Positions 52,436 to 64,000 of a stretch of DNA of 64,000 nt are shown here, piece after piece. A program made the translations under genes and the position numbers. How positions within the stretch are numbered: position 1 is the stretch's first letter; the number at the start of each line of letters is the position of its first letter. This DNA comes from Thermoleophilia bacterium (lineage in GTDB: Bacteria; Actinomycetota; Thermoleophilia; RBG-16-64-13): positions 84,962 to 148,961 of the forward strand of contig JAXGIS010000002.1 of NCBI GenBank assembly GCA_040770645.1. Reading direction: 5' to 3'. Under the pieces are notes generated by a model, which had not been told where the DNA came from, did no database searches, and saw only the letters and a list, made by a program, of their open reading frames with translations.

Positions 52436-52468
52436 CTCTTCCGGCCTCTCTGGACACGCTTAAAGGTC
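52436..52468 (-). promoter_or_regulatory. canonical PyrR-binding RNA site in the pyrB leader
   Basis: The RNA reads GACCUUUAAGCGUGUCCAGAGAGGCCGGAAGAGCCGCCCG-AUG. It contains the UUUAA...GUCCAGAGAGGC core, and its 3' arm carries the SD (GGAAGAG). Confidence 0.75.
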
Positions 52469-52566
52469 AACCTCACCTGCCGCAATGATTCTACAACCAA
52501 CCGGCTTCGAGCACAGTACCCCGTCTGCCGGCTGCGGTTGCCCTTAGCAAAGCGCCTTATTACTCT

Positions 52567-52595
52567 TTGTTTAAAACATGCTTCATTTTTATATG
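52567..52595 (+). promoter_or_regulatory. candidate sigma-70-type promoter in an AT-rich spacer
   Basis: TTGTTT-17 nt-TATATG lies within the only strongly AT-rich stretch of the window (about 52555..52610). Confidence 0.35.
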
Positions 52596-52659
52596 TTCTT
52601 TATGTATCCTTGCGCCGTCACAGGCTCGTTTCGGTGAGCCCAGCCCGAAGGAGGCCCAG

Positions 52660-52821
52660 ATGAAGCTGGCGAAGTTGGTGGCGGCTGTAGCGGCTATCGC
52701 AGGAGTGGTGGTCCTGGTGTTGTCCATCCTCAACAGAGACGGAGGCGCGCTCTGGATGCCTTTTGCCTTCTTCTTGGGGCTGCTGCTCGAACTGATAGCG
52801 GTGGTTTTCGCCGTACGATGA
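52660..52821 (+). CDS. small two-helix membrane protein
   Basis: ATG follows GAAGGAGG: MKLAKLVAAVAAIAGVVVLVLSIL...LWMPFAFFLGLLLELIAVVFAV. Confidence 0.45.
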   Translation: MKLAKLVAAVAAIAGVVVLVLSILNRDGGALWMPFAFFLGLLLELIAVVFAVR

Positions 52822-53107
52822 CTCGAAGCCGTCGAGGCCCGCGAGCGCCTGAAAGAGGCCGCCTGAACCGCTCTTCGCACCGCGCGGTCGTTTCTGCGAT
52901 TTGATCGGCATCGCCCCTGCGCACCTGAGGGTCAGACATACGCCCGCGAAGGGCGCGCAGGGGCGGCGAATACCGGCAAGCGCGATTGGGCCCATGAGGG
53001 TCATCACTTCGGCGCCGCGGCCGTCCAATCGGCACGGCTCCTGGCACGGCTCCCGGGCCCGTTCCCCGTTACGGCTCCCACTTCCCCTTCGGGGCCGATC
53101 CCGCTCC

Positions 53108-55818: not shown

Positions 55819-56059
55819 TACCGCTCGGGCTTTGCCATCAGGCGGGTAGCCACCCCGACGCCGCCCACCGACGTTGAGGTGACCTCCTGAGCAGACGCTC
55901 TATATGTCTGTATCCCCAAAACTTCAGGAGATCAAGCAGGTCTTTCCAACCATCCCCAGGAGGCTGCCGGCCAGTCACACAGTCGCGGCTGCGGCAACGG
56001 CAGAGGCCGTGAAGAATTGAGCCGCCGAGACCGCTCGCGTCCTGTCAAAGGAGGCTAGG

Positions 56060-56603
56060 AGCCTGTCGGGAAAAACCCGCAGGTGAAGTCTAGACTCTCC
56101 CGGGCCGGGCGGGTAGTGTGGCTGGAAACGACCCAGGAGGCGTGCTCGTGGCCCGGGACTTCCTGCCCTATGATCTCGACCAGCAGTATCTGCTTCCTCC
56201 CAGCCTGAAAGAGTGGCTCCCTGCCGACCACCTCGCCTTCTTCGTCTCCGACGTGGTCGACTCTCTGGATCTGTCTCTCATCATGGACACCTACCAGAAA
56301 GACGAGCTTCGCGGCCGCCCCGGATATAACCCGGCCATGCTCCTCAAGCTCCTCATCTACGGATACGCCCAGGGCAAGACCTCTTCCCGCAAGCTGGAGC
56401 GCTCCACCTACGAAGAAGTCCCCTACCGCGTCCTTGCCGGCAACCAGCACCCCGACCACGACTCCATCGCCTCGTTTCGCAAACGCCATCTCGCGGCGCT
56501 CGGTGGCCTCTTCACCCAGGTCCTTCGCCTCTGTCAGGAGGCCGGCCTCATCAAGCTGGGTCACGTGGCCTTGGACGGCTCCAAGCTGAAAGCGAGCGCA
56601 CAC
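56060..56603 (+). mobile_element. IS1182-family IS remnant: 5' end plus the first ~150 codons of the transposase (GTG 56148), truncated
   Basis: AGGAGG-7 nt-GTG, then ARDFLPYDLDQQYLLPPSLKEWLPADHLAFFVSDVVDSLDLSLI..GRPGYNPAMLLKLLIYGYAQGKTSSRKLER...HVALDGSKLKASA. Homology stops at about 56601-56606. The left IS boundary could not be determined. Confidence 0.75.
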
Positions 56604-57227: not shown

Positions 57228-57254
57228 GGCTCAGCGGCTCCTCATGCTCTCACT

Positions 57255-59297
57255 TCACGAGATCAGACTGCGTGCGGCGGAGGCCACCGCCTCCGGAGTG
57301 ATACCCAACTCCTTCATGACCCTCGGTCCCGGCGCGGAAGCGCCGAAACGATCGATGACGACCATCTTCCCGCGCTCACCCACCCAACGTTCCCAACCCA
57401 ACCCGGTGCCGGCCTCCACCACGACACGCGCGGTCACTGACGGCGGCAGCACCTCGTCGCGGTACTCCTGTGACTGCGCCGCGAACAGCTCCCAACTGGG
57501 GAAGGCCACCACCCGCGCCATGATGCCCTGCACCGACAGCATATCCCGCGCGCTCAGCGCCGTGTGCACCTCGGACCCCGAGGCCATGATGATGACCTCC
57601 ATGGTGCCGCCGTGCGGGTCGGAGAGTACGTACGCGCCTCGGGAGAGGAGATCGGCGCCGGCCAGGTGCGATCGATCCAAGATGGGGACGTTCTGGCGCG
57701 TGAGGATGAGGGCGGTGGGGCCCTCCACCTCCTCCAAAGCCACCCGCCACGCCTCCGCCGTCTCGTTGGCGTCGGTGGGACGGATCACCGTGAGGCCGGG
57801 GATGGCCCGCAACGCCGCCAAGTGCTCCACGGGCTGATGGGTGGGCCCGTCCTCGCCCACCGCCACACTGTCGTGCGTGAAGACGTGGACCACGTGTGCC
57901 CCTGAGAGGGCGGCCATGCGGATGGAGGGCCGCATGTAATCAGAGAAGACCAAGAAGGTGCCGCCGTAGGGCAACACGCCGCCGTGCAGAGCCAGGCCGT
58001 TGAGGATGCCGCCCATGGCGTGCTCCCGCACCCCGAAACGGATGTTGCGACCACCACGGAACCGCCGATCGAACGGGCCCTTGCCCTCGAGATAGGTGTT
58101 GTTGGACGGAGCCAAATCGGCCGAGCCACCCATGAGGTTCGACACCGCGTCCGCCACGGCGTTGAGCACTTTGCCCGAAGCGGCACGGGTAGCCATGGGG
58201 CCGTCCGCGGGAGTGAAGGCCGGCAGCGCGGAGCGCCAGGCGGCCGAGGGTCTGCCGCTTAGACACGTGTCCCATTGAGCGGCCAACTCGGGGTGCTCGG
58301 CCCGGTAAGCGGCGAGCCGCTCCCGCCACTCCTGGTGGGCGGCGGCGCCCGCGGCCGCCGCCGCCGCATACCGCTCCCTGGCCTCGTCGGGGACCAAGAA
58401 CTGGGCGTCTTCAGGCCACCCCAAGGCCTGTTTGGTCAACCTGACCTCCTCTTCCCCCAGTGGTGCTCCGTGCGCGTCGGCGGAGTCTTCCTTGTGGGGA
58501 CTGCCGCAGCCTATGTGAGTGCGCACCAGGATCAGGCTGGGTCGGTCAGCCACCTGCTTGGCACGGGCGATGGCGGCATCTATGAGGCTGAGATCGCCCC
58601 CGTCGGTCACCTGCATCACGTGCCATCCGTAGGCACCAAAACGATGCCCCACGTCCTCCGTGAAGGTGATCTGGGTGGGACCTTCAATGGAGATATGGTT
58701 GTCGTCGTATAGATAGATCAGTCTGCCCAACCCCAGATGGCCGGCTAAGGAGGCCGCCTCCGAGGCGATCCCCTCCATGAGGTCCCCATCAGAGACTATG
58801 CCGAAGGTGTAATGGCCCACCACCCGATGTTCGGGACGATTGAAGGTGTGCGCCAGGAACTCCTCGGCAATGGCCAAGCCCACACCGTTGGCAAACCCCT
58901 GACCCAACGGACCGGTGGTCACCTCCACACCGGGGGTCACGCCCCGTTCCGGGTGGCCCGGCGTGCGGCTGCCCCACTGACGAAAGTCCTTCAGGTCCTC
59001 GAGACTGAGATCGTATCCGGCGAGGTGGAGCAGAGCGTAGAGCAGCATGGATCCATGTCCGGCGGACAGGACGAAGCGATCGCGGTCGAACCAGTCGGGC
59101 GCGGCGGGATCGAAGGACAGGTGCCGGCTCCACAACACGTGGGCCATGGCCGCCGCTCCCATGGGCATACCGGGATGGCCGGAGTTGGCCTTCTGCACAG
59201 CATCCATCGCCAGCGTGCGAATGGTGTTAATGCACACCTGATCTACATCATCGAAACAGGCAGGTGCCTCCAGCGCAGCCTCAGCCATGAAACCCAC
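57255..59297 (-). CDS. tkt: transketolase
   Basis: [35 protein letters not shown]. The 680-aa frame is intact. Confidence 0.95.
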
Positions 59298-59436: not shown

Positions 59437-59889
59437 CTAGTCGACTCCTTGCGAGAGGACCGGACTCGAGTTCCGGCTCGTCGCGTCTACCGCCATTCCC
59501 AAGAAGTTCACAGTCGGAAGACCGAGTGCGCCCCATCTCCCCCGGCTTGTTTGACACCAGATATGTTCTCGGGCCGCAGTATAAAGAATCGAAAGACCGT
59601 TTACGGCTACAAGGCGGGCCGCCGAATCATCGTCTAGGTCGCGCTGTTCGAGTTCAAACGTTCCCGACAGGCTCATTTCCACCACATAGGGCGCCGGGGG
59701 GTCCAGATCGGGGCCCAACTTGAGACTCAGCTCTACCCTCCAATGCTGTGGCTCTTCTTTGCTTCGCCTGAGGGGACCGGGTTCTATCCGCACCTCCGGT
59801 TCCAACTCCATGGGCGCGTTTTCGTCGCCCGCCTCGATCAGTATGCGATCGATGAAGAGCTGCCTAAGCCGCAACGGTCCAGTTTTCAT
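59437..59889 (-). CDS. SecB-like chaperone of a toxin-antitoxin-chaperone (TAC) module
   Basis: ATG 59889 follows GGAAGGA: LRLRQLFIDRILIEA...SLSGTFELE...VNGLSILYTAAREHIWCQTSRGRWGALGLPTVNF resembles the SecB fold ends. It is the third gene after HigB/HigA. Confidence 0.7.
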   Translation of the reverse strand: MKTGPLRLRQLFIDRILIEAGDENAPMELEPEVRIEPGPLRRSKEEPQHWRVELSLKLGPDLDPPAPYVVEMSLSGTFELEQRDLDDDSAARLVAVNGLSILYTAAREHIWCQTSRGRWGALGLPTVNFLGMAVDATSRNSSPVLSQGVD

Positions 59890-60286
59890 CGTATCCTTCC
59901 CGGGCGGCGGTGGCATCCACAGGGACTCCGTCGGTAACCTCGTACTCGTTTGCCTCCACAAAGGCCAGATCGTCCAACCAGTGGGTCCGACTACCCCGTG
60001 GCGCCAGATGCGTGCGAAACTCCAAACCCAGCGCAAGAGCAATTCTGGCCATGGTTCGTAGAGTGAAATTTGCATTCCCACGGAGTATTTTCGTCACGTA
60101 GGCCTGTGAGGTGCCGAGCCGGCGTGCAAGCTCAGCCCTGGATACCCCCACCCGCTCCATAGCAAGACACAGATCCTCGGTGAAAGTGATGATGGCCTGT
60201 TCTTCCCAGAAGTCGTGATGACTCTCAGCCTCGCGGAATAGATCTGCGAACCCACGGTCACTCACCACTGCACCCCTTTCGCTCAT
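59864..60286 (-). CDS. higA: HigA-like XRE helix-turn-helix antitoxin with a C-terminal extension (candidate chaperone-addiction region)
   Basis: GVSRAELARRLGTSQAYVTKILRGNANFTLRTMARIALALG is the HTH. A tail of about 45 aa follows (HLAPRGSRTHWLDDLAFVEANEYEV...). Confidence 0.78.
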   Translation of the reverse strand: MSERGAVVSDRGFADLFREAESHHDFWEEQAIITFTEDLCLAMERVGVSRAELARRLGTSQAYVTKILRGNANFTLRTMARIALALGLEFRTHLAPRGSRTHWLDDLAFVEANEYEVTDGVPVDATAAREGYDENWTVAA

Positions 60287-60674
60287 CCAATAACACTAGT
60301 CCTCCTTGCTTCTTTGCTTGAAAATAATCACGCCTGACTCTGACAGCGAAGGCCTTCTCCGTCGGCGGACATCTCCTCGTTTTCTTCCTGAATCCATGGC
60401 TACAGACGATCAGACGATCCTGGTCAAAAAAGTAAAGAACACGAAACGACGTTGTCTTCAATTCGAAGATATCGTCACCAAGAGCATTCGATTTCTCCTT
60501 GTTCTTAGGTGGCCCGTAGCGGGATGTCCATTTGATCAATGCCATCATCTTGCGGGCTTCGACATCCCCGGGCTCCTCAAAGGAGCCAAGGAAATCCAGC
60601 AGTGGACAGTCCCCACCACTGTCACAGGCCGCGACAATGTCCCATTGGTCTCTTATTACCCCTCTCAGCTGCAT
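60258..60674 (-). CDS. higB: HigB/Gp49-like (RelE superfamily) toxin
   Basis: FELKTTSFRVLYFFDQDRLIVCSHGFRKKTRRCPPTEKAFAVRVRRDY is typical of Gp49/HigB toxins. Local GC is clearly lower than the flanks. Confidence 0.72.
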   Translation of the reverse strand: MQLRGVIRDQWDIVAACDSGGDCPLLDFLGSFEEPGDVEARKMMALIKWTSRYGPPKNKEKSNALGDDIFELKTTSFRVLYFFDQDRLIVCSHGFRKKTRRCPPTEKAFAVRVRRDYFQAKKQGGLVLLDERKGCSGE

Positions 60675-60692
60675 CTTAACCTATAAACCATG

Positions 60693-63600
60693 TCAACCCT
60701 TTTTCCCCTCCGGCACGATCGCCAGCCAGCACACCAGGTGCACGTCTTCGATTTCGATGAGGGGCAGTGGTTCTGGAGCCGGACTCGGGCTGAGACCCAG
60801 TCTTTACCTCCTCGGCGACCGCAACCGCCTGACGGGCCGGGTCGTCGCTGGAGCGGAGGGCCCCGCGCAAAGCCCTCTCGATGCGCGCTCCGTAGGTGCC
60901 TCCACCGCATCGATCAACCACTCGGAGCTCCTCTTGAGGGATGTCCCCCGGAGGATGAGACCGCAGGAGCGCGGCGGCGTCCCGCATGGCTTTGGGTACC
61001 TTGGGCTGCAGGTTGAAAGGATCGGTGGCCTTCTGCCACTCCGCGAAGATGTGGTGGCGGGCATCTCCCAGGCATCGTAGGCCAGGTGGTAGAGTCTCGG
61101 AGTCGAGCGCACGCTCGGTATCCGCGTGGACCTGAGCCTGTGAGAGGCAGACGAGGGTCTCGGAGTCGACTTTGGGGATCCCATCTTCGGGGTAGCTCAC
61201 GTAGCGGTATTGTGCAGCCTCGTGATCGGCCACCCGAGCGCAGAAGACGAAGCCCCGGTCCGCCCTGAACGCACGAACCCGCTGCCCGAACCCCAAGGCA
61301 GAGCCCGCACCTGCCTGTGGTAATGGCGAAGCGGGTCGAGTCCCCGCTTCAGTTCTTGTCGGAACGCCTCGCCGAGTAGGCGTCCCCCTTCTCGCCTCCG
61401 GTCTCAAACAGCGTGGATCCCCTTGCAGGCGGAGGATCTCCTCGCGGGTGTCGGCGAAGATGACGTCGTGCACCTGCGAGCCGGGGAGCACTTCGCCTTC
61501 CACTCCCACGGCGGCTGCCGCCTGCCCGATCTTGCGCTGTAGGCGCTCTTCTAAGCCGAGGAGATCGTCGAGCTTCTGGTCGGGGAAGAAGCAGCGGAGG
61601 AACACGCGATCGTGGCGGCTGCCGATACGGTCTATACGCCCGTGGCGCTGTACCAGACGCATAGGGTTCCAGGGTAGGTCATAGTTGATGATGTGGCGGG
61701 CCTGCTGCAGGTTAACGCCTTCTGCCAGCACATCGGTGGTGACGAGGATGTCGTATCTGTCTTGGTCTCTTCCGGCAGGAGCGTCCGTGGTCTTGGGCGC
61801 AAATCCCCAAAGTACATCTGAGCGGTCCCCCCCGCGCCCGGAGATGGTCACCACGCGCCCAAGGTAGGGCGCCAACCGCGGGTCCGTCTTTGTGACTTCT
61901 TGGAGATACTTCTCGATCCAATCAGCCGTGTCGGCAAAGTACGAGAAGACGATCACCTTGCGGGCATCACGCACCTCCGAAGGCGTGAGCCCCTCTTCGT
62001 GAGCCTGCGCGGCAATATCGGCGAGCTCTTCAGTCAAGGCGGCCAGTTTGGGGTCGGTGCAGGCAGTGATGCGGCGGGCTTCGGCGGCAAATGCCAAAAG
62101 CAGTTCCTGATCGGCCGCCACATCGGCTCTTAGGGCGGCAACATCATAGGAAGAAGCGGGCTGACGATCGGTCAGATCCAGACCCTCCACATCGAGTTCA
62201 TCGCTGAGTTTATTGCTGAGTTCGTCGCTGTCGGTCGCCATCCACTCGGCAAGCGCGGCTCCGGTCACCACCCAACCCTGGTCCAACAGCTCCAGAAAGG
62301 CCCCGTGGGAGGCGGCCATGCGCTCGCAGGTGAGCGCAAAAGCATGAGAGGAGGACTCGAAACGTTTAAGCAGCCCCGAACGCAGAAGCCCTGCCAACTG
62401 TAGCTCATAGGATTCGGGATGCCCGGAGAGCGAGTACCCCGAGGGAGCGTAGCGGGCAAGACACAGGGTCGGTTGCTCCTCTAAGTCGTGCCCACAGATG
62501 CACCTGCCGTTGCCGCAATCGAGCGCATGGGCGAAACGGACAAAGAAGCCCGGCAGCGTCTCTTCTAAGTCGTAGGAGACCCGCTGCACCTTGGGCTGAG
62601 GGAAGCGAATGGCGACGCTCTCTCCTCGGATGTTCACCCGATCGTTGGGATAGTAGAGCTTGACGAAGTGACGCGTGCGCCGGACCGCCACCTCGTCTAG
62701 GACATCGAACAGCTTGTCTGGCGAGAGGTCGTCGGGATCCAGGGCCATAGCTTGGGCGAAATGGCCCCGCAAGGACCGTATGCCGGCGTGGGCAAAGGCG
62801 GCGTCGTTGCGGATGAAGTAGCCCAGGAGGTAGTAGAGGTCCCAGAGACTGTTGTTGACGGGGGTGGCGCTCAGCAGCACAAGATCTTTGGGAGGGGTAC
62901 CTTCGAGCAACCTGCGCAGCACCTCGGCCCGCTCGGTATCGGGGTTGCGGTAGGCTTGGGCCTCGTCGATGACCACCATGGCAAAATCGTCTATGGAGAA
63001 GTGCAGATGATCGCCATCACCTTTTGGGTTCAATTGGTGATCCCGGGAGAGCTCCTCGTAGGAGATACTACGGATGCCCAACTGGTGTTGGCCTAAGAAG
63101 TAGCGCCAGGGCCCGTCACGCAGGGCGGCCGGGCTGACCAGGAGCACCCGTTGACGCCGCTCCTGCACCGCTTGGCGGATGAGCTCGCCGGCCACAAAGG
63201 TTTTGCCCAGTCCCACCCCGTCTGCGATCAGCACCCCGTGGTGTTTGTCTAGGATGCGTTTGGCCCGCCACACCCCGTCATGCTGAAAGCTGGTGAGATG
63301 GATGCCTGCCGCTCCTTGGGCCTCCTCTTCCAACTCGGCGCCGTAGCGCTCATAGAGCATGCGCAGGTAGATCAGATAGGGGCGGTGGGGCAGATAACGG
63401 GCGGCGTAAAGCGAGGCGAGATCGAAGGGGGCCGACTGTTCCCAGACCTCGTCGAACCAATCCCTCACCTGCGCGACCACGTGCGGCTGGTACTGCCCTA
63501 AGTTGAGCTCGTTGTTGGTGGCCAGACCGGCGTAGGTGAAGTTGGACGATCCCACCACGGCACCCTGAGCATCGGTGCCCACCAGAAAAGTCTTGCCGTG

Positions 63601-64000
63601 CAGAAAACCGTGCTCGAAGCGGCGAATCTCCACCCCCTCCCGCCCAAGCCAAGTGATGAGGCGTTCGGCAAGCTCGTCGGTCTCAAGAGAAAAACCCAGC
63701 AGATCTCGGTCGGCTTTAAGCGAGCGGGTGTGCCCCTCCAGCGCCCGACGGAGTCTGGCCCGCTCCATCTCCTCGGGCCCGCTCACCGGATCAAGGTGCC
63801 TAAGTTGCCGCTCTTGGCCCTCAGGCTCCGCCCCCAGCACCAGCCGTACCCGCCCCACCTTCTCCAGCACGTCCGCCAGCAGTTGGAAACCTTCGGCGTT
63901 GAAGTAGGCGGTGGAGATGGCAAGCTCGAAAGGAGCGGCCAGAGTAGCCAGCAGATGCTCAAGGTAGCCACTGATGGCGGCGGCCACGGTGTTGTCGGAG
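60693..64000 (-). pseudogene. PLD-like nuclease domain fused to an SNF2-family helicase with a C-terminal domain of unknown function; 5' end beyond the window; at least 4 frameshifts in the 3' third
   Basis: The frame is open to the window edge (GTG at 63987 is only the caller's start). PLD motif: FLHGKTFLVG...VVGSSNFT. SNF2 motifs: ADGVGLGKTFVAGE, VVIDEAQAYRN, LLSATPVNNSLWDLY, LAEGVNLQQARHIINYDLPWNPMRLVQRHGRIDRIGS. The segments STLFETGGEKGDAYS, GEAFRQELKRGLDPLRHYHRQVRALPWGSGSGF and the true C-terminus LGLSPSPAPEPLPLIEIEDVHLVCWLAIVPEGKKG* (stop at 60693) are in other frames. Shifts are near 61420, 61372, 61255 and 60800. Confidence 0.85.

Follow-up and report, generated by a model that had tools for sequence, protein, structure and literature searches.

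What is the role of a gene that joins a phospholipase D (PLD)-type nuclease to an SNF2 helicase-like motor, when its upstream neighbours lie just past the edge of the sequence at hand? The question is raised by a gene at one end of a 64,000 nucleotide (nt) stretch of Thermoleophilia DNA (GenBank assembly GCA_040770645.1, contig JAXGIS010000002.1, positions 84,962 to 148,961; the window in what follows). The gene lies on the minus strand at 60693..64000 and encodes a PLD domain with a single HKD motif, an SNF2 ATPase core and a C-terminal domain (CTD); we refer to the product as the PLD-SNF2 protein. An earlier reading of the letters alone (the sequence-only reading) took the gene for a candidate defence or DNA-targeting system, and suspected that an upstream partner such as a methyltransferase might exist. 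Comparison with related loci favors that candidacy. The gene is paired with a methyltransferase, its flanks are variable, and the catalytic residues of both the PLD and SNF2 parts are invariant. We therefore consider it probable, at roughly 0.6, that the PLD-SNF2 protein serves as the effector, or restriction subunit, in a defence system of two genes that relies on methylation.

The partner is found in two reference contigs, L001 (ENA, 98.8% nucleotide identity to the window) and L081 (NCBI GCA_040772165.1, contig JAXGYR010000006.1, 99.3%; the locus lies at 56-77 kb). The two are independent of each other and the PLD-SNF2 gene is intact in both. L081 has the gene order putA (on the opposite strand), a 1353 amino acid (aa) methyltransferase with an Eco57I domain, the 1113 aa PLD-SNF2 protein, a Gp49 toxin, a helix-turn-helix (HTH) antitoxin, a SecB-like protein, tkt, tal and opcA. 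The stop codon of the methyltransferase overlaps the start codon of the helicase in the sequence ATGA, and the methyltransferase is of the Eco57I type in L001 as well. In the L081 protein the motifs stand in gamma-class order, with motif I (DIAMGSGHF, near residue 606) ahead of motif IV (NPPW859). Between them is a 250 aa insert, and some 490 aa come after motif IV. The PADLOC model REase_MTase_IIG (PDLC03620) spans the methyltransferase end to end (570 + 317 bits, in the two halves present in L001), and the PADLOC DrmMI models match its catalytic part (252 bits). The partner is a predicted N6-adenine methyltransferase of the Eco57I/DrmMI/Type IIG-like kind. The signs of a hypervariable target-recognition region are only suggestive. 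By tblastn, the C-terminal part has 24-58% identity, compared to 32-56% for the rest of the protein in the same loci, and a sliding-window profile of 17 methyltransferases dips at residues 751-850 and 1001-1050 with no sharp hypervariable block.

The pairing extends across the family. A scan of one genome per GTDB species found full-length relatives of the PLD-SNF2 protein, at 40-59% identity, in Acidimicrobiia, Gemmatimonadota/Longimicrobiales, Planctomycetota, Acidobacteriota, several Actinomycetota, Delta- and Gammaproteobacteria, and one Nitrosopumilaceae archaeon. The phyletic distribution is patchy. A methyltransferase is directly upstream on the same strand in all 32 full-length family loci analysed by tblastn (those with upstream DNA), and in most of them a single open reading frame (ORF) of 1330-1390 aa encodes it, the end of which meets or overlaps the helicase start. 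When the neighbourhood ORFs of these loci were clustered all-vs-all, only the methyltransferase and helicase families were present throughout. Other clusters common to many loci are shadow ORFs inside one of these two genes. Since the methyltransferase is constant while the flanking genes vary, this is not a syntenic housekeeping helicase, a possibility that the sequence-only reading had held open against itself.

A few loci carry additional genes nested between the methyltransferase and the PLD-SNF2 gene. They include SIR2_2 and HerA, a known defence pair (L027 4006-7601), an IrrE/M78 peptidase with an HTH gene (L020 8282-9493 and L026), Schlafen AlbA_2/HATPase_c_4 (L009 8086-9933), DUF4062/Fic-like_C (L026 6821-9968 and L027), and an HNH/DUF222 element (L006 8214-9782). 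Genes nested inside an operon have been described for defence operons such as hma. More distant PLD-SNF2 proteins in haloarchaea (25-27% identity) likewise lie in the vicinity of a methyltransferase of the Eco57I type, with Mrr_cat and DUF4238 genes beside it. In Natronoglomus mannanivorans (L040 6184-22527), the PLD-SNF2 protein has 1268 aa and 26% identity, and an 892 aa Eco57I-type methyltransferase is nearby on the opposite strand; Mrr_cat and DUF4238 genes adjoin, and we did not find a DUF499 gene in this locus. Because this locus pairs the two proteins, the association of nuclease-motor and methylase reaches the archaea, in a different arrangement.

The domains read from the sequence hold up in the PLD-SNF2 protein itself. 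Pfam places one PLDc_2 stretch, and only one, at residues 21-182 (45.6 bits against a cut-off of 27), and both SNF2-rel_dom (E 7e-11) and Helicase_C (E 8e-16) are above their curated cut-offs. Residue conservation was scored across 71 homologues with 58-79% identity to protein P0001. The HKD residues H143, G144, K145, G159, S160, N162 and T164 are invariant, so the loss of PLD catalytic residues that the sequence-only reading had allowed for is not seen. Also invariant are G272-K275 (Walker A), D354, E355, A387-N392 (motif III) and Q792-I800 (motif VI) of the SNF2 core. The N-terminal domain belongs to the PLD/HKD nuclease superfamily (Nuc/BfiI-like, single-HKD), and its nuclease activity is predicted. 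A Cys-rich insert in the core had been noted too. The window copy does have four Cys in the insert loop; of the homologues, 42/71 have two, 27/71 have none, and four occur in only one. The Cys are not conserved, which rules out the insert as a zinc finger.

[quoted passage not shown] RapA is the best match (E 1.6e-15), and the alignment takes in the SNF2 core with its inserts. RIG-I-like receptor helicases (LGP2, MDA5) come next, together with SNF2 chromatin remodellers. The top matches, including RapA and the remodellers, range from E 1e-12 to 1e-15; ZorD has rank 46. RapA also gives the best alignment to the full-length model, but with a large root-mean-square deviation, and it is the first match of phmmer against the PDB (E 7e-11). 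By motifs, Pfam and fold, the motor belongs to the SNF2 family of superfamily 2 (SF2) ATPases.

These matches, by both sequence and structure, are what could suggest a housekeeping factor, that is, a RapA-like SNF2 protein of transcription or repair with a degenerate PLD domain. In this lineage the operon also sits between putA and tkt-tal-opcA, which would suit such a role. We consider it very improbable. The score against the NCBIfam RapA model is far too low (64 bits, cut-off 576), the HKD residues are invariant rather than degenerate, the distribution is patchy, and the synteny analysis contradicts it, with flanks that vary across genomes around a constant methyltransferase. E. coli RapA itself differs in having N-terminal Tudor domains and no PLD domain, and it binds RNA polymerase as a housekeeping protein.

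The PLD plus SF2 helicase architecture is also that reported for SauUSI, and the PLD-SNF2 protein might by this likeness be a modification-dependent Type IV nuclease that attacks methylated foreign DNA, with the methyltransferase serving another role. This too is highly unlikely. Such a nuclease would be self-toxic in an operon with an active adenine methyltransferase unless the specificities differ. Pfam detected no methyl-reader domain (SRA, DUF3427, EVE or YTH) in the protein, and its motor is SNF2/RapA-like; SauUSI is absent from the top 50 fold matches of the full model.

If the PLD-SNF2 protein is instead the effector of a methylation-based system, the pair may work as follows. The upstream methyltransferase of about 1350 aa, a gamma-class N6-adenine enzyme with its own C-terminal target-recognition region, would mark the host DNA. 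The PLD-SNF2 protein would be an ATP-driven double-strand DNA translocase. A single HKD per chain, as in Nuc and BfiI, requires a dimer. With one HKD half-site per chain, two chains would thus be needed for one PLD active site, and we propose that they dimerise through their HKD domains as in Nuc, BfiI, SauUSI and MANTIS MtsD. The effector would be licensed at unmodified sites, perhaps via the CTD, and DNA with such sites would be cut after ATP-driven translocation. For the CTD we propose a coupling role, between the motor-nuclease and either the methyltransferase or DNA. The analysis shows the domains, the invariant catalytic residues, the strict gene pairing with its stop-start overlap, the patchy distribution and the nested defence genes. 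Methylation as the self mark, dimerisation, licensing, translocation-triggered cleavage and the order of these events are all inferred from MtsD, SauUSI, BfiI and the logic of Type I and Type III enzymes.

The main rival to this scheme is that the methyltransferase is a complete, self-sufficient Type IIG enzyme, and the PLD-SNF2 protein an accessory or an independent effector that is merely co-inherited with it. In that case the PLD-SNF2 protein could play a RapA-like part in clearing or remodelling complexes on DNA, or serve in abortive infection as an Hna-like helicase-nuclease. The whole-length match of PDLC03620 to the methyltransferase is in line with this, as is RapA's place as the nearest solved structure to the motor. 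Similarly, a table in Milman et al. (2023) lists a Type II restriction-modification coding sequence (CDS) beside a CDS with PLD (cd09178) and SNF domains. The N-terminal 340 aa of the methyltransferase, however, have no match to Pfam and none to a nuclease in the PDB. A profile search of the PDB with this part returned only an implausible alkyl-sulfatase match (E 8e-5), the methyltransferase as a whole had no phmmer match in the PDB, and no D...(D/E)xK triad is among the conserved columns of the N-terminal 340 aa. A missing nuclease signature is weak evidence against Type IIG. The PLD domain is favored as the nuclease of the system by its invariant HKD residues and by the strict adjacency of the two genes with their ATGA overlap, and we find the self-sufficient methyltransferase a rather unlikely explanation.

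Some observations do weigh against the effector reading that we prefer. PADLOC labels the methyltransferase family as Type IIG, i.e., a self-contained nuclease-methylase, and nuclease activity in the N-terminal 530 aa of the methyltransferase would mean that the system has an effector besides the PLD-SNF2 protein. The CTD, to which the scheme gives a role, has no functional match in Pfam or, by Foldseek, in the PDB and BFVD. The methyltransferase of the window's own genome lies outside the sequence seen here, and the partner is known from the near-identical contigs L001 and L081. Last, the system may be decaying in this lineage, because the L001 methyltransferase is split after NPPW and the CTD in the window is scrambled (see below). 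In L001 the two pieces have 895 and 438 aa, with the stop directly after NPPW (the region of the split is L001 8531-8700). A segment of about 136 bp after the stop does not align to L081, and downstream of it the identity falls to 96.9%. The split may be a recombined specificity region or a genuine inactivation.

Is the pair part of a system that is already described? The window protein was compared to curated hidden Markov models (HMMs), and membership was judged by the curated cut-offs together with the partner genes. All scores are far below the cut-offs: DrmD (NF038317) 155 bits (cut-off 610), NF038318 (DrmD) 102 bits (950), the PLD anti-phage protein NF042964 121 bits with only the helicase C-lobe aligned (1100), DpdE 98 bits (500), and ZorD 34 bits (1500), in addition to the RapA score given above. 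The best match among the PADLOC protein models is the candidate model 'HKD+Snf2' (167 bits, partial coverage). PADLOC PLD_Helicase scores 79 bits and the BrxHII models 62-77 bits; the matches to BrxHII and DpdE are partial only. We take NF042964 and PLD_Helicase to be models of MANTIS MtsD. Membership in DISARM, MANTIS/Gao_RL, BREX, Zorya, Dpd and RapA is ruled out on these grounds. For DISARM, MANTIS/Gao_RL and BREX in particular, the scores fall short of the HMM cut-offs and the defining partners are missing, in agreement with the first impression that the protein fits no described system.

The likenesses are nevertheless informative. The three activities have homologous counterparts in Class 1 DISARM, namely an SNF2 motor (DrmD models, 101-155 bits), the methyltransferase DrmMI (PADLOC model, 252 bits) and a nuclease of the PLD type, and in the Serratia Class 1 system drmD and drmMI add to protection without drmABC. 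The PLD nuclease DrmC is a separate protein there, whereas here the PLD domain is fused to the N-terminus of the SNF2 motor and a family-specific CTD is added. The core genes DrmA, DrmB/DUF1998 and DrmC are absent from the gene tables of L001 and L081 and are not conserved in the 32 loci. Type-2 BREX-related systems have an HKD-SNF2 effector along with a DUF499 ATPase, a methylase and DUF3780. MANTIS (formerly Gao_RL) is of the same family; its PLD-helicase MtsD is required for restriction together with a methyltransferase, and is a dimer with one shared PLD active site that has been reported as SauUSI-like. In our own mapping, the AAA+ ATPase MtsA corresponds to Pfam DUF499 and MtsB to DUF3780. 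The family described here resembles MANTIS in its N-terminal single-HKD nuclease fused to an SF2 helicase-like motor that would work with an N6-adenine methylase. It differs in its Eco57I-type methyltransferase of about 1350 aa with its own recognition region, and in a motor that is RapA/SNF2-like, in contrast to the SauUSI-like MtsD. We found no DUF499 or DUF3780 gene in L001 or L081, nor among the conserved neighbours of the 32 loci.

A RapA-like SNF2 helicase gene beside a large adenine methylase is also found in BREX type 3 (BrxHII and PglXI), ARMADA (ArmA and ArmB) and Dpd (DpdE). There the pair belongs to a larger system of 4-8 genes (PglZ, BrxC, YprA helicases, deazaguanine genes). In the present family it occurs by itself, and the nuclease is part of the helicase protein. 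PglZ, BrxC, BrxA/B and a YprA-family helicase are all missing from the conserved neighbours of the 32 loci. In CglI/NgoAVII (R with PLD and B3 domains, H/N with a DEAD-Z1 ATPase) and in SauUSI, an SF2 motor that translocates on dsDNA drives a PLD nuclease, and communication over long distances along the DNA is needed for cleavage. Their motors are of the DEAD-Z1 or SauUSI type, and not SNF2 as here. Additionally, site recognition in CglI is by the B3 domain of the nuclease subunit, and SauUSI targets methylated DNA without a cognate methylase. Type III restriction-modification is ruled out as well. Its Res subunit has a ResIII helicase and a C-terminal PD-(D/E)xK nuclease and acts with a beta-class Mod methylase; in the present pair the ResIII match is below the cut-off (21.7 bits, cut-off 22.5) and covers the P-loop only, the nuclease is an N-terminal PLD domain, and the methylase has the gamma-class order.

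In the literature we did not find a named system or an experiment for the two-gene form of PLD-SNF2 and methylase. There are only passing mentions, in Milman et al. (2023) and where HKD nucleases are treated in restriction-modification contexts. On the comparisons above, we regard the pair as an uncharacterised and widespread two-gene variant of the known kind of defence that combines methylation with a helicase-nuclease. More tentatively, it could be a distinct, unnamed class of ATP-dependent restriction-modification. The module of SNF2 helicase and large adenine methylase, which is found repeatedly within DISARM class 1, BREX type 3, ARMADA and Dpd, would here stand alone in its minimal form. 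The SNF2 motor would in that case have acquired its own HKD nuclease and a CTD without a PDB fold match that docks onto an autonomous methyltransferase, and no AAA+ loader or YprA helicase would be needed.

The CTD is the least familiar part of the protein. It is carried by 548 representatives of 50%-identity clusters, from many phyla; in full-length matches of about 1100 aa it makes up the C-terminal 240 aa or so, and the shorter matches resemble fragments. The sequence-only reading could not assign this domain, and the searches here end the same way. There is no match to the CTD in Pfam. A confident AF2 model of the CTD alone (pLDDT 84, above 90 in the core) shows four strands in a sheet, six helices in a bundle and a terminal strand. 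Foldseek with this model found nothing better than E 0.02 in the PDB and BFVD, with template modelling (TM) scores of at most 0.16; against the PDB the best match has E 0.08, and RapA is outside the top 50. Weak matches to the substrate-binding domain of DnaK are not significant. The CTD is specific to the PLD-SNF2 family and without an assignable function.

It is in the CTD that the window copy departs from its relatives. As deposited, a single reading frame on the minus strand stays open between the window end and 60676. The stretch 63987-64000 is free of stop codons, so the gene starts beyond the window end, as had been supposed. The deposited NCBI protein (P0177, 1116 aa) equals MRPEFLVNR followed by the window translation, scrambled C-terminus included, and so just 27 nt of the gene lie past 64000. 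The intact homologue P0178 is identical to the window protein through residue 843. Within the last 250 aa or so, the window translation is partly out of frame, and in a three-frame translation the sensible reading switches among frames. The repaired frame ends in a TGA, and for this frame the gene end and the spacer to the toxin ATG at 60674 were correctly called from the sequence.

The number of frameshifts was underestimated at four. There are 11 indel events inside the gene, all at 61423-60806 and the same against both L001 and L081, and the 3' spacer has an additional 4 nt deletion against both contigs. The first three indels of the CTD are single-A deletions that sum to 3 nt and keep the frame. 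The remaining ones are -1, -1, -1, then +1, -1, then +1, -1, then +1, -1, and a final -2. Because most of them compensate one another, the window CTD has no stop codon. It keeps 177/258 residues of the intact form; lost are the invariant segments GGExG..SGE..RQEL and LPWGSGSG and the terminal strand.

These frameshifts could be real, with the PLD-SNF2 gene a recent pseudogene in this genome and the system on its way out. In keeping with this, the indels are in the deposited assembly itself (P0177 matches the window translation), the methyltransferase is broken in the related L001, the helicase is in fragments of 335 and 529 aa in another metagenome-assembled genome (MAG), and 4 kb away in the window an insertion sequence (IS) fragment takes the place of half a transaldolase gene. 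The pattern of the indels argues otherwise. They mostly alter the length of short homopolymer runs (CC/CCC, AAA/AAAAA), and the roughly 650 bp that hold them have only one substitution, in a pair of sequences otherwise 99.3% identical, while the other 2.6 kb of the gene have no frameshifting indels. Homopolymer indels that cluster where substitutions are nearly absent speak for a local sequencing or polishing error and not for neutral decay. We think it quite likely that the indels are a local error of sequencing, polishing or assembly, and a genuine pseudogene unlikely.

Other parts of the window differ from L081 as well. At 56058-56599, about 540 bp stand where L081 has 534 bp that form the 3' half of the transaldolase gene. 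The window segment encodes, on the plus strand, the N-terminal 165 aa or so of a DUF772 (IS5/IS1182-like) transposase, ends abruptly, and is present as a single copy in the window; the window transaldolase is reduced to Pfam positions 1-152 of 285. An exchange for a segment of like length would be an unusual outcome of a natural IS insertion, and a misassembly may be behind it. At 52439-53088, 10 bases are deleted in 650 bp, near the end of a methyltransferase gene and a small hypothetical gene. Eight bases are deleted at 57247-57258, the 3' end of the transketolase gene, which encodes 680 aa compared to 684 aa in L081. These two further clusters of small deletions resemble the one in the CTD and suggest patches of low-quality sequence in the assembly. 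Bins related to the window's MAG come from anaerobic digesters.

Downstream of the PLD-SNF2 gene, the toxin-antitoxin-chaperone module that had been recognised from the sequence is real. Its three overlapping genes lie on the same strand at 59437-60674 and score 49.5 bits (Gp49), 38.9 bits (HTH_3) and 25.7 bits (SecB, borderline against its cut-off of 26) in Pfam. A precomputed SecB match on a homologue is flagged as weak, and the toxin also has a weak match to PADLOC NsnC (E 7e-10). L001, L081 and a number of short metagenome contigs also have the module beside the locus. It is missing from other family loci in the 32-locus clustering, which rules it out as a component of the system, and it is a lineage-specific neighbour. 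ARAGORN found no tRNA or tmRNA genes in the 64 kb window. The features of the locus are collected in Table 1.

Table 1. Features of the PLD-SNF2 locus and its downstream neighbours, in window coordinates.
Feature	Position	Strand	Remarks
PLD(HKD)-SNF2-CTD gene	60693..64000	-	First 27 nt (MRPEFLVNR) past 64000; stop TGA 60695-60693
Single-HKD PLD nuclease domain, ~residues 20-200	63427..63969	-	Pfam PLDc_2 E 8e-12; motif HGK...GSSNFT; H143 codon 63600-63598
SNF2 ATPase core	61621..63309	-	Pfam SNF2-rel_dom and Helicase_C; invariant motifs; Foldseek RapA/SNF2 remodellers
Walker A GLGKT	~63213-63199	-	Within SNF2 core
DEAQ	~62967-62956	-	Within SNF2 core
Cys loop in long helical inter-lobe insert	~62520-62450	-	Cys not conserved
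Helicase_C	~61974-61621	-	Pfam; motif VI QRHGRIDRIGS begins 61650
Family-specific CTD, ~250 aa	60693..61430	-	No Pfam match; AF2 model; indels 61423-60806
Spacer from helicase stop to toxin start, 18 nt	60675..60692	-	22 nt in L001/L081; 4 nt deletion in the window
Gp49/HigB-like toxin, 138 aa	60258..60674	-	Pfam Gp49 E 4.5e-13; neighbour outside the conserved pair
HTH_3 (XRE-type) antitoxin, 140 aa	59864..60286	-	Pfam HTH_3 E 9e-10
SecB-like chaperone, 159 aa	59437..59916	-	Pfam SecB 25.7 bits, cut-off 26

For the window itself, these results mean that the gene is real, that its partner is just off the edge, and that the broken C-terminus is probably an assembly artefact. The PADLOC protein models recognise only the methyltransferase of the pair, under a Type IIG label, and include no dedicated model for the nuclease-motor. 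Systems of PLD-SNF2 and methyltransferase are for this reason probably under-counted and mis-typed. Methylation-based defences with a helicase-nuclease (DISARM, BREX, MANTIS, ARMADA) are widespread, and their mechanisms are murky because the components are many. With just an autonomous methyltransferase and one motor-nuclease polypeptide, a version of two genes would offer experimenters the simplest way to learn how a methyltransferase licenses an SNF2 motor for the cutting of foreign DNA. If the pair is indeed a minimal stand-alone module, it would be the simplest tractable model for the way in which the multi-gene methylation-based systems link site recognition to motor-driven cleavage.

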